DNA from: Candidatus Sigynarchaeum calidifontis
Lineage (GTDB): Archaea > Asgardarchaeota > Lokiarchaeia > Sigyniarchaeales > Sigyniarchaeaceae
Direction: 5' to 3'
DNA: 11,325 bases
Assembly: GCA_030587475.2 (NCBI GenBank)
Contig: JAUQYZ020000018.1
Location: forward strand, 1-11,325
Positions 2,441 to 6,514 of the stretch are shown here, one piece after another. Position 1 is the first letter of the stretch. Every line of letters begins with the position of its first letter. Under the pieces are notes generated by a model. That model was not told the origin of the DNA and did not search any database. It saw only the letters and a program-made list of their open reading frames with translations. Made by a program: the position numbers and the translations under genes.

Positions 2441-3019
2441 CTATTGAATAACCGCCGGAATGCCGGTTCGCGCGTCCTGGCACTGCACGACGAGCGTGTC
2501 GGTGATGTACTTGAAGATATCCTCGACATTCTCGCCGGTCTTCGACGACGTGGGGACGTAGCAGTCCAGGCCGAGTTCCGAGGCGGTGTCTCTTGCAAGC
2601 TGGTGAATGTCCTCTAGCTGTTCCGGGGGAACAAGGTCGAGCTTGGTCCCGCCGAGCACGATCGGGATGTTCTCTGCCGCGTGGGCGCGGAACATGTTCA
2701 CCCAGTCCTTGACTTGCATGATCGTGCCGATGCGGGTCATGTCGAAGAAGACCACGCCCGCCTTTGCTCCTGCAGAATAGTTGGCCTGGAGAAAGCGGAA
2801 GCGCTCTTGCCCTCCGAGGTCCCAGAGCGCCAGCTTGATTTTTTTCTGCAAGCTCTCGAGATGGATCTCCTTGGTGTGGAAAGCGACGCCGATGGTCATG
2901 GTCGAGTTCTGCAGGAACGTGCCGTTCAAGTACCTGTGCAGCAGCGTCGTTTTACCAACGGCGCCTTGCCCCCCGATGACGATCTTGAAGAGATAGGATT
3001 CATCCATCTTATTTTTCAT
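2441..3019 (-). CDS. Ras-superfamily small GTPase, Rab-like
   Basis: G1 GQGAVGKTT, G2 TIG, G3 WDLGGQERF, G4 variant TKLD, G5 SSK. RabF-like motifs IGVAF, KLALW, RFRFL, YSAGA, VVFFDMT. No C-terminal prenylation motif. Confidence 0.95.
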   Translation of the reverse strand: MKNKMDESYLFKIVIGGQGAVGKTTLLHRYLNGTFLQNSTMTIGVAFHTKEIHLESLQKKIKLALWDLGGQERFRFLQANYSAGAKAGVVFFDMTRIGTIMQVKDWVNMFRAHAAENIPIVLGGTKLDLVPPEQLEDIHQLARDTASELGLDCYVPTSSKTGENVEDIFKYITDTLVVQCQDARTGIPAVIQ

Positions 3020-3073
3020 CTTTTTTTTCCTGGATTATGGTATGAATTATAATCGTAATATCGGCATATGCCC

Positions 3074-3080
3074 ATATAAA
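3074..3080 (-). promoter_or_regulatory. Candidate TATA box for the Rab-like gene
   Basis: Minus strand reads GAACAATAACA-TTTATAT, about 55 nt upstream of ATG 3019, within an AT-rich patch. Confidence 0.45.
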
Positions 3081-3285
3081 TGTTATTGTTCGTGGGAAGG
3101 GGATCCCATCACATTCATCAAGGCACGAGGCGCGGGATCGACATAGGGCTCTTGATGATGATCATCTCGGGGTTCATGCACGTGCTAGACAGCCGCTCAA
3201 GGTCAAGGCTTGCGCGTGATGTCATTTCATTTTATAGCAGGCAACAAGCGTTTCACGTGATGGTGAAAATCATTTTTGAAAAGTC

Positions 3286-4107
3286 TTAACGATAATCATC
3301 CACGTTTAGATCTTGATCGTCTCTTTTCGTCTCGCTCTTGGCCTTATCGAACCGTTTCTTGAACCAGCTAGGTTGTATGAAGCCGATGTAGAAGCACATG
3401 AGGCCGATCGCGGCAAATATCCATGTCAACGTCCCCACGAACGAGTAAGTGCCGGCTGGGCCGAGAATGAGCCCGAGAAGCGTGTCGATGACCGTGCACG
3501 CGATGGCGGCGATCAAGATGACCGATCCGTAGCCGATCACGTGTAACGAAACCTTTTGCACGGGGATGTTGATAGTTCTTGCGGTGCGAAACGCGCCATT
3601 TATGGCGATCGAGAACGTGACGACGAGATACAACAAGAGATGAACCTGAGCGATCAACCGGAACGATTGGCTCGCGCCCGTGATGCCCCAGTTATTTTGC
3701 GGCAAGATGATCAAGGTTCCCGCTAGCAACCCCCACGCGAGATAGAGATAAATCATCCATCGCCTGACGTCTTGAAAGAAAATTTTCGCGCAGAAGATGA
3801 ACAAGAAAAAAATGCTCATGCACAGGAGGAAATAGACCGACGGGTTCGTCCACACGACCCACGCCGGCCTGTAGCCTAACACGAAGGATTGCACGTTGGC
3901 CACGATGGGTATGGCGATCACCCCGGTAAACAAGAGGAATGACAACGCGAGCGAAAACGTCGTGAGTTTTTTTCGCTGGACGGATTTGATCAACAAGACA
4001 ATCGTTGTTATCAACACGATCGGGGATAACACGAACAATACGATGGTGTGCGGGATAACAGCCGGGTTGAACTCGCTGCATCCCGTGCAATCTGGAGGTA
4101 TCGGCAT
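3286..4107 (-). CDS. Stand-alone seven-transmembrane protein (receptor-like, N-out/C-in predicted)
   Basis: 273 aa with seven hydrophobic helices. Basic clusters follow TM1 (RKK), TM3 (RR), TM5 (RTAR..K) and TM7 (KKR). Ends YIGFIQPSWFKKRF. N-terminal CTGC. Confidence 0.88.
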   Translation of the reverse strand: MPIPPDCTGCSEFNPAVIPHTIVLFVLSPIVLITTIVLLIKSVQRKKLTTFSLALSFLLFTGVIAIPIVANVQSFVLGYRPAWVVWTNPSVYFLLCMSIFFLFIFCAKIFFQDVRRWMIYLYLAWGLLAGTLIILPQNNWGITGASQSFRLIAQVHLLLYLVVTFSIAINGAFRTARTINIPVQKVSLHVIGYGSVILIAAIACTVIDTLLGLILGPAGTYSFVGTLTWIFAAIGLMCFYIGFIQPSWFKKRFDKAKSETKRDDQDLNVDDYR

Positions 4108-4334: not shown

Positions 4335-4367
4335 TCGGCGAGAAATGAATGGTGGACAGGGGGAGAG

Positions 4368-4397
4368 TTGTCCCGCACCCTCTAACAGCGGATGCGA
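4368..4397 (-). other. tRNA intron at position 58/59 (30 nt), strict bulge-helix-bulge
   Basis: TCGCATCCGCTGTTAGAGGGTGCGGGACAA. Central helix GUUC/GGAC, bulges AA^U and AA^C, inner helix CGCAUCC/GGGUGCG, outer helix GGGA/UCUC. Confidence 0.92.
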
Positions 4398-4443
4398 TTG
4401 AACTCCCGGCCGCCTGCACCCCAAGCAGGAATCATACCAAGCT

Positions 4444-4474
4444 TTCGGTCGGCAGGATGAATTTCTGCTGCCGC
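4444..4474 (-). other. tRNA intron at position 13/14 (31 nt), relaxed bulge-helix-loop motif
   Basis: GCGGCAGCAGAAATTCATCCTGCCGACCGAA. Central helix UGGU/ACCG, bulge CU^G, inner helix CGGCAG/CUGCCG, 3' cut AA^A. Removal restores U13-A14-G15. Confidence 0.88.
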
Positions 4475-4798
4475 AGACCACCTGTCCACGCATGAGGTTG
4501 ACGTGCATTGCAAACCCGCGCAACAAGTACACGCTTCCGAGCCGGCCGATCGTGTGGCCAGCATTTCCCGCGTGGCGAAGGAGCACGGGTATCGCACGTG
4601 ACATCATGAAATCGAAAAGTTAAAACATGCCCTTTTTTCGCCACCATGAGCGTGAGTCTCGAACCGACGATCCCATCCCCTCACCTTGTCTCTTTTTCGT
4701 CATTCCACGGGAGAATGTTATTAATCCAAAAGACTTATTCAAGAGCGACGAGTGATTCGACGGTACCAGGATCCCCGGTCGAAATAAGGTCGGTCGCA

Positions 4799-6514
4799 GT
4801 GGCAGAAAACCAGCACGTACCCGGCAAGAACCAGAAAGTCGCGTATTTTTCCATGGAAATCGCGCTCGAGGCAGACGTCCCGACGTATAGCGGAGGACTC
4901 GGCGTCTTGGCAGGAGATACCATCCGATCCGCCGCGGACCTCCAACTTCCCATGGTCGGCGTGACCCTGACTTATAACGCGGGATATTTCTACCAGATGA
5001 TAGCCCCGGATGGCCGTCAAGTAGAGCGCGACATCCGCTGGGATTTTTCGGTCGATTTTACCAAGGTGGATGCAAAAGTAAAGCTCGAGCTGCAAGACAA
5101 GACACTCACGGTTGGCGCCTGGGTATACCATGTCGTGGGCCGCAGTGGCCACATTATCCCCGTCTACTTGCTGGACACCGACTTGCCCGAGAACGAGCCG
5201 TGGCAAAGGAACCTGACCCGCGTGCTATACGACGCGAGCCCGTTCCAGCGAATCGTGCAAGAGATGATCCTGGGCATTTGCGGCATCCGGATGCTAACCA
5301 AGCTCGGTTACAACGAGATCACGACCTACCACATGAACGAGGGACACGCGGCGTTTATGGTGTTCGAGCTCCTCGACCGGTTCAAGAGCATCGAGGAGGT
5401 CAAGAAGCGCTGCGTCTTCACGACACACACGCCCGTGCGGGCGGGACACGACCAGTTCGACTACGGCCTCGTCCAGGACGTGTTCCGGGACCGGCTCCCC
5501 AAGGAAGCCAAGGATCTCGCCGGGCAGGACATGTGCAACATGACCATCCTCGCCTTGAACGGCAGCCGGTATTGCAACGCCGTTGCCATGAAACATGGCG
5601 AGATCAGCCGTCGCATGTTCCCCGATTATAAAATAGATTACATCACCAACGGCATCCACATGAGTTATTGGCTGTCGCCTTACATGCACACGCTCTTTGA
5701 CAGCGAGCTCGGGGCCGCGTGGCACCACGATTATCACAGCCTCGAACATGCCCTGCAGCTCAACAACAACGAGATATGGCGGGCGCACCAGAAAAGCAAG
5801 CTGGACCTGCTCGACTACGAGAAGAGCCACTCGTGGGTGTTGCTCGACGAGAAACTGCTCACGATCGGCTTCGCGCGGCGCGTCACCGAATACAAGCGCC
5901 CCTTGCTCATCTTCTCGGACCTGGAGCGGCTCGCCAAGATCGTCGCCGGCAAGGCGCAATTCATCTTCGCCGGCAAGGCACATCCTGCCGACAACCAGGC
6001 CAAGTCTTTCATCAAGAACATAAACGATTTCAGCGATTATCTCTGGAACTCCTACAAGGTGCGGGTCGTGTTCCTCGGAAACTACGATATGGATCTCGCG
6101 AAGCTTATGGTGAGCGGGGTCGACGTGTGGTTGAACAATCCCCGCCGGTACCGCGAGGCCAGCGGCACGAGCGGCATGAAGGCCGCGCTTAATGGCGTCC
6201 TCAATTTTAGCGTCCTGGATGGCTGGTGGATCGAAGGTTTTAAAATGGATCCCTTGGCTGGCTGGTCTATAGGGCCTGGAACCGATGATCCCGATGCCGA
6301 AAAGAAAGATGATGCCGTGGACGTCGAGGACCTCTATTCGAAGCTCCAGGACGAGATCATCCCGATCTACCGGAAAAATCCCGAGGACTGGCGCAACCGC
6401 ATGAAGCACGCGATCCACTTGGTCAGTTACTTCAACACGCACCGCATGGTCGAGGAGTACGCGGCCAAGGCATACAAGCTCGAGCGGCAGCCCATCTGGC
6501 GCAGCATCACGTGA
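4799..6514 (+). CDS. glgP: Alpha-glucan (glycogen/maltodextrin) phosphorylase, GT35, compact form of about 571 aa
   Basis: VAYFSMEI, YSGGLGVLAGD, HMNEGH, FTTHTPVxAGHD, ITNGIH, GFARRxxxYKR, AGKAHP, DVWLN, and the PLP-lysine signature EASGTSGMKAALNG. The in-frame GTG 4799, preceded by AAGGT, is preferred over ATG 4646 because the extra 51 residues are not family-like. Confidence 0.97.
   Translation: MAENQHVPGKNQKVAYFSMEIALEADVPTYSGGLGVLAGDTIRSAADLQLPMVGVTLTYNAGYFYQMIAPDGRQVERDIRWDFSVDFTKVDAKVKLELQDKTLTVGAWVYHVVGRSGHIIPVYLLDTDLPENEPWQRNLTRVLYDASPFQRIVQEMILGICGIRMLTKLGYNEITTYHMNEGHAAFMVFELLDRFKSIEEVKKRCVFTTHTPVRAGHDQFDYGLVQDVFRDRLPKEAKDLAGQDMCNMTILALNGSRYCNAVAMKHGEISRRMFPDYKIDYITNGIHMSYWLSPYMHTLFDSELGAAWHHDYHSLEHALQLNNNEIWRAHQKSKLDLLDYEKSHSWVLLDEKLLTIGFARRVTEYKRPLLIFSDLERLAKIVAGKAQFIFAGKAHPADNQAKSFIKNINDFSDYLWNSYKVRVVFLGNYDMDLAKLMVSGVDVWLNNPRRYREASGTSGMKAALNGVLNFSVLDGWWIEGFKMDPLAGWSIGPGTDDPDAEKKDDAVDVEDLYSKLQDEIIPIYRKNPEDWRNRMKHAIHLVSYFNTHRMVEEYAAKAYKLERQPIWRSIT

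Follow-up and report, generated by a model that had tools for sequence, protein, structure and literature searches.

A three-exon tRNA-Pro(GGG) gene with two non-canonical introns, missed by standard searches, in Candidatus Sigynarchaeum calidifontis

Structure of the tRNA-Pro(GGG) gene

The stretch of DNA analyzed, 11,325 nucleotides of Ca. Sigynarchaeum calidifontis and referred to here as the window, contains on its minus strand a gene for tRNA-Pro(GGG) that is divided into three exons by introns at tRNA positions 13/14 and 58/59. The gene is real, well supported and ordinary for Asgard archaea, and it is very probably a functional, single-copy gene with two protein-spliced introns, in which a two-subunit EndA would cut both splicing motifs and RtcB would join the exons. 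The residual interest lies in the rare 13/14 site, with its two possible registers, and in a within-genus mosaic of homologous introns. The features are as follows.

4350 to 4487, minus strand: tRNA-Pro(GGG) gene; precursor of 138 nt, mature tRNA of 77 nt, CCA encoded
4475 to 4487, minus strand: exon 1; 13 nt, tRNA positions 1 to 13, equal to the 5′ end of intronless orthologues
4444 to 4474, minus strand: intron 1; 31 nt, position 13/14, HBh′ motif
4445 to 4473, minus strand: alternative register of intron 1; 29 nt, leaving two extra bases before A14
4398 to 4443, minus strand: exon 2; 46 nt, positions 14 to 58 (D loop with 17a, anticodon arm, variable loop and 5′ T arm)
4420 to 4422, minus strand: anticodon GGG (34-36); G37 is next, without a 37/38 intron
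4368 to 4397, minus strand: intron 2; 30 nt, position 58/59, full hBHBh′ motif
4350 to 4367, minus strand: exon 3; 18 nt, positions 59 to 76, with discriminator A73 at 4353 and CCA at 4352-4350
4646 to 6514, plus strand: alpha-glucan phosphorylase gene; divergent from the tRNA gene, a conserved neighbor used as an orthology marker

The joined 77-mer was called as tRNA-Pro(GGG) by ARAGORN, with a 7-bp acceptor stem, A73 and CCA, and its cloverleaf contains U8, A14, G18, G19, U33, the T-loop and the GGG anticodon. When only one of the two inserts was removed, there was either no ARAGORN call or a false Gly call. An earlier note, made from the sequence by itself, had proposed a three-exon gene with inserts of 31 nt (4474-4444) and 30 nt (4397-4368), a textbook 77-nt cloverleaf with CCA after splicing and no intron at 37/38, and these coordinates proved to be exact. 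Its suggestion of an Asgard host also held, as the neighboring phosphorylase shares a 90% cluster with proteins that bear the name Ca. Sigynarchaeum springense (Lokiarchaeia). The exons are intact and contiguous, and because they adjoin in normal order a split or permuted tRNA gene was ruled out. Short open reading frames that overlap the locus were dismissed as lacking support; a sigma-70-type promoter scan was uninformative, and no tRNA promoter was assigned.

Whole-genome search for proline tRNA genes

It was found that ARAGORN detects no tRNA in the window when the gene is left unspliced, that the unspliced gene has no Rfam match at E ≤ 1, and that it is also missing from the genome-wide RF00005 list, as expected from the earlier suggestion that standard finders may overlook it. 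Three related genomes supplied 46 reference tRNAs for a tRNA profile, and the whole genome was searched with it, with inserts permitted anywhere and without use of the splicing motif. This blind search recovered the tRNA-Pro(GGG) gene with both inserts at a score of 63, compared with a best score of 27 on the reversed genome.

The possibility that the gene is an assembly artefact or a chance mosaic of tRNA-like pieces draws on the source, a metagenome assembly with 5% contamination, but the score lies far above the reversed-genome control, and both intron positions are found again in relatives that were assembled independently. The assembly GCA_030587505.2 is moreover identical over 3.6 kb, both introns included, though it may derive from the same sample. 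We regard an artefact as hardly credible and effectively refuted.

Neither the profile search nor a second scan for anticodon arms found another Pro(GGG) gene in the genome, which answers the earlier question of whether this is the only one for an assembly that is 89% complete; an intact copy could therefore be unassembled. The profile search also yielded a Pro(CGG) gene without introns and a Pro(UGG) gene with two. Among the proline codons of long open reading frames, CCC accounts for about 31% and CCU for 12%.

Splicing motifs at the two junctions

Both introns have a 4-bp central helix formed between exon and intron and flanked by 3-nt bulges, and a cut after the second base of each bulge restores the tRNA. 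The earlier note had placed each junction at the cut position of a bulge-helix motif; this is supported by an HBh′ motif at 13/14 and an hBHBh′ motif at 58/59, far above the shuffled controls. When the criterion was a 4-bp central helix and an intron helix of at least 6 bp within a register of ±3, 0.035% and 0.1% of the trials with shuffled introns equaled the motif quality. Relative to the free fold, each motif carries a penalty of about 5 kcal/mol; an objection to the motifs on grounds of free energy was rejected because the canonical 37/38 introns of the same genome carry the same one (4.5 to 5.5 kcal/mol).

By sequence, intron 2 fits four registers, and the geometry of the motif fixes it at 58/59, the only register in which the full hBHBh′ forms. 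Its central helix is GUUC/GGAC (4403-4400 with 4373-4370), its bulges are AA^U and AA^C, its intron helix (h′) has 7 bp, and its outer helix (h) has 4 bp by means of a two-base slip of the T stem, so that the structure is of the strict form.

For intron 1, the 77-mer is obtained from the 13/14 register only. The central helix is UGGU/ACCG (4480-4477 with 4449-4446; U-G, G-C, G-C and U-A), the bulges are CU^G and AA^A, the intron helix has 6 bp (4473-4468 with 4455-4450), and the outer exon helix has 0 bp. With h 0 and h′ 6, the motif belongs to a recognized subtype, the relaxed HBh′, and not to the strict hBHBh′. If 29 nt were removed instead, the tRNA would be 79 nt long, with a D loop enlarged by two bases, and could be the sole product or a minor mis-spliced one. 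The central helix of that register, GGUC/GACC, has four Watson–Crick pairs and a predicted stability, in a constrained ensemble, equal to that of the 13/14 register (−57.9 versus −57.6 kcal/mol); the 79-mer is still called as tRNA-Pro by ARAGORN, and the same ambiguity persists in the relative L142. Set against this, the 29-nt register displaces A14, which is invariant in the 46 reference tRNAs and in all orthologues, and the intron would end in GA, whereas 13 of the 24 introns of the genome end in AA. We therefore consider removal of 29 nt very unlikely and prefer the 13/14 register, because the D arm then matches that of every orthologue and the intron has the end that is commonest here. The absence of an outer helix in intron 1 and the equal stability of the wrong register do count against the splicing of this gene.

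The 31-nt intron at the same site in L142 has equal length, the same ends and, in a comparison of two sequences only, three compensatory changes from G-C to A-U. In a survey of 400 Asgard genomes, limited to tRNA-Pro genes that match one search pattern, no other 13/14 intron was found, and all other D-arm inserts in that set begin after A14-G15; the one further case seen is in a metagenomic congener. Position 13/14 is not in a review's non-exhaustive list of archaeal intron positions (PMC4090602, PMC4033280). One His gene of Atabeyarchaeia has an intron that begins after 13 listed bases and may be at 12/13 or 13/14 (PMC11291895), and for this reason we do not claim 13/14 as a new site.

Candidate splicing enzymes

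The genome encodes an EndA alpha subunit that is nearest to crenarchaeal enzymes (2cv8, E = 2e-29) and aligns with them through the specificity loop, including its lysine, with the region of the catalytic Tyr and His conserved. The gene runs off the end of a contig, and the C-terminal part is on another contig end. A second EndA subunit, which lacks the His motif and looks non-catalytic, and RtcB are also encoded. It was reported that HBh′ motifs are cut efficiently only by enzymes that carry the loop and that Asgard EndA has it (PMC5829648); by analogy, the host EndA would be able to cut relaxed motifs.

In the proposed mechanism, both junctions of the precursor would fold into a bulge-helix-bulge, relaxed (HBh′) at 13/14 and strict (hBHBh′) at 58/59. 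The two-subunit EndA with its L1/CSL loop would cut each bulge after its second base, RtcB would join the three exons into a 77-nt tRNA, and the mature tRNA-Pro(GGG) would read CCC and CCU. We infer transcription, cleavage at these exact bonds, the order of the steps, ligation and the correct choice of register at 13/14.

Distribution of the introns among relatives

The tRNA-Pro(GGG) gene is head to head with the phosphorylase gene, near the GINS and MCM genes, in all family members examined, and the spliced product differs by two bases from the intronless syntenic orthologue (L062/L137). The intron sets of this genome, of the congener G001 (JAFGBX010000195.1, a Promethearchaeota (Lokiarchaeia) MAG) and of four further loci, together the six closest lineages, are as follows.

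Ca. S. calidifontis: 13/14 and 58/59
G001: 42/43 and 58/59
L134: 42/43
L142: 13/14
L056: none
L146: none

More distant family members have no intron, a D-loop intron near position 17, or one near 17 together with one at 37/38.

Judged by their sequences, the two 58/59 introns are clearly homologous, with 23 of 30 positions identical, above all 514 unrelated pairs, and the two 42/43 introns are probably so (0.6% of the null). Homology of the 13/14 pair is weak by score (5% of the null). The intron helices stay paired in the relatives, with three double changes at 13/14 and the hairpin kept at 58/59.

These comparisons bear on whether the gene is a pseudogene, that is, a tRNA-Pro inactivated by two insertions, while tRNA-Pro(UGG), or an intact copy absent from the assembly, reads CCC and CCU. 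The assembly is incomplete, and an intronless Pro(UGG) is present in a tRNA array of the genome, both of which favor that explanation. It is nonetheless highly improbable, as the exons are intact and match the intronless orthologues, both inserts lie exactly at the motif cut sites, the 58/59 insert is kept with its hairpin in the congener, and the gene occupies the ancestral syntenic locus. We therefore retain the functional, spliced gene as our interpretation.

In a tree of the flanking proteins, in which two rows are less than half filled and the root is not clean, this genome and the intronless L056 group together (98/98); a clade that unites the 58/59 carriers is rejected (p-AU 0.002), as is one of the 13/14 carriers (7e-10). 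The absence of the 58/59 intron from this sister lineage points to precise loss or to allele exchange. At least one base-exact loss in L056 is the simplest reading; replacement by an intronless allele is equally possible because the acceptor stem is altered there. At 13/14, a single gain with at least three losses is inseparable here from two gains.

Within one Asgard genus (six lineages, five intron sets, three sites), homologous introns at this locus may repeatedly have been lost with base-exact precision or exchanged horizontally, and 13/14 may be a site not yet catalogued, at which EndA would need a fidelity cue beyond the bulge-helix-bulge fold because both registers are equally stable. 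We put this combined interpretation forward tentatively, as possible and short of probable; if true, the locus would be a natural setting in which to test how archaeal tRNA introns arise and disappear.

Several further differences between relatives were noted. In L134, L142 and L146, all three without the 58/59 intron, the closing pair of the T stem is A53-U61, where G53-C61 is near-universal. An MCM intein with a LAGLIDADG domain is present in some family members (1233 to 1235 aa) and absent in others (692 to 711 aa; loci L133, L134 and L137). At 2441-4107 of the window there is a Ras-family small GTPase with an upstream membrane protein that has no Pfam match, and the membrane protein gene is absent from that position in the relatives checked. 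A search of viral contigs found no relative of the gene that neighbors the tRNA gene.

Discussion

The earlier note had named Thermoproteales as the main precedent and overrated the novelty of the gene. Interrupted Asgard tRNA genes have been published, including multi-intron genes and a Freyarchaeia Pro(GGG) interrupted by introns three times, first after 15 nt (PMC11291895, Supplementary Data 4), and the novelty is lowered accordingly. Valentin-Alvarado et al. (2024) reported introns, many of them non-canonical, in 92 to 95% of the tRNA genes of three Asgard genomes, and some multi-intron genes of Atabeyarchaeia and Freyarchaeia are missed by tRNAscan-SE (PMC11291895). The gene described here therefore belongs to a known kind: like those genes, it is an Asgard tRNA gene with several non-canonical introns that is missed by annotation. 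Unlike them, it is from Lokiarchaeia, its introns are at other positions, and about two thirds of the dispersed genes of its genome are interrupted.

In a preprint, Goswami et al. survey 90 Asgard genomes, covering genes that tRNAscan-SE detects, and report that D-arm inserts are systematically missed, that none of the inserts has been shown to be spliced, and that parsimony cannot separate losses from repeated gains (bioRxiv 10.64898/2026.10.13.758758). Our results agree with the census in the D-arm and T-arm inserts at bulge-helix-bulge boundaries, the failure of annotation, the turnover between relatives and the lack of a donor; they differ in that a homologous intron here flanks an intronless sister. 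Lokiarchaeia and Sigynarchaeum are never named in the main text of the census, whose panel may include them.

As in Thermoproteales, introns defined by bulge-helix-bulge motifs are found at D-arm and T-loop positions together with a two-subunit EndA that has the specific loop (PMC4090602, PMC4033280). In contrast to the transposed families of Thermoproteales, neither intron has a related copy in another tRNA of the genome: short BLAST searches of the genome and of the relatives' loci gave nothing beyond 13-nt matches among the matches listed, and in a comparison of introns within the genome no cross-gene pair with either intron was among the top scores. With no donor among the matches listed and no cross-gene relative among the top scores, a transposed intron family of the Thermoproteales type was rejected.

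The tRNA-Pro(GGG) of Thorarchaeia shares the 58/59 position and the 30-nt length, but the intron sequences are unrelated (scores within the null), and the Thorarchaeia intron is usually paired with one at 37/38. Because Thorarchaeia often have such unrelated 30-nt introns there, 58/59 is a recurrent site and not the result of one event.

The tRNA inventory of this genome is corrected by these results, as the sole CCC/CCU reader found is invisible to ARAGORN and Rfam, and hidden multi-intron tRNAs are extended to a Lokiarchaeia genus. What is added is the rare 13/14 site, its second equally stable register and the absence of 58/59 from the sister lineage. The gene is also a short, defined substrate for a first Asgard splicing test, which according to the preprint is lacking (bioRxiv 10.64898/2026.10.13.758758), and close relatives that differ by single introns offer a comparison set.

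Other tRNA genes of the genome

By a rough count in which boundaries are not fully curated, about 29 of about 45 dispersed tRNA genes have inserts, and at least nine have two or more. The tRNA-Pro(GGG) gene is thus typical of its genome, and the lineage-wide multi-intron system that had been suggested earlier is borne out. Isotype-biased searches force anticodons onto other genes; Leu(CAA), Trp(CCA) and Lys(UUU) were the only calls accepted.

Intron lengths cluster tightly at 28 to 33 nt in the genome and at 29 to 32 nt in Thorarchaeia Pro(GGG) (L025-L064), longer and narrower than the 22 to 23 nt median given in the preprint (bioRxiv 10.64898/2026.10.13.758758). Introns at rare positions were seen in Gly(GCC) (8/9; C71:31220-31320), initiator Met (14/15; C192:28156-28258) and Glu(CUC) (28/29; C49:55713-55814). 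A 212-nt tRNA-Trp(CCA) gene (C70:4524-4735, L218) has at least three inserts, is mis-called by ARAGORN and has a partial Rfam match. A tRNA-Ile gene with anticodon UAU and a 37/38 intron is at C97:3343-3444, and Ile(UAU) also occurs in the relatives G003 and G011. The 3′ end of tRNA-Leu(CAG) is duplicated about 3.8 kb downstream of the gene (C132, near 23211 and 27004), like an integration site.

Two contig ends that overlap by 19 nt (C212:11601-17719 and C82:1-1816; L215 and L216) together form an array in which about 30 tRNA genes, all without introns, are arranged by amino acid; it contains Pro(CGG) and Pro(UGG) and lacks Pro(GGG). The array encloses a Ro60/TROVE gene (C212:15389-16945) and a Thr(AGT) call, has ordinary metabolic neighbors, and looks like a second, acquired tRNA set.
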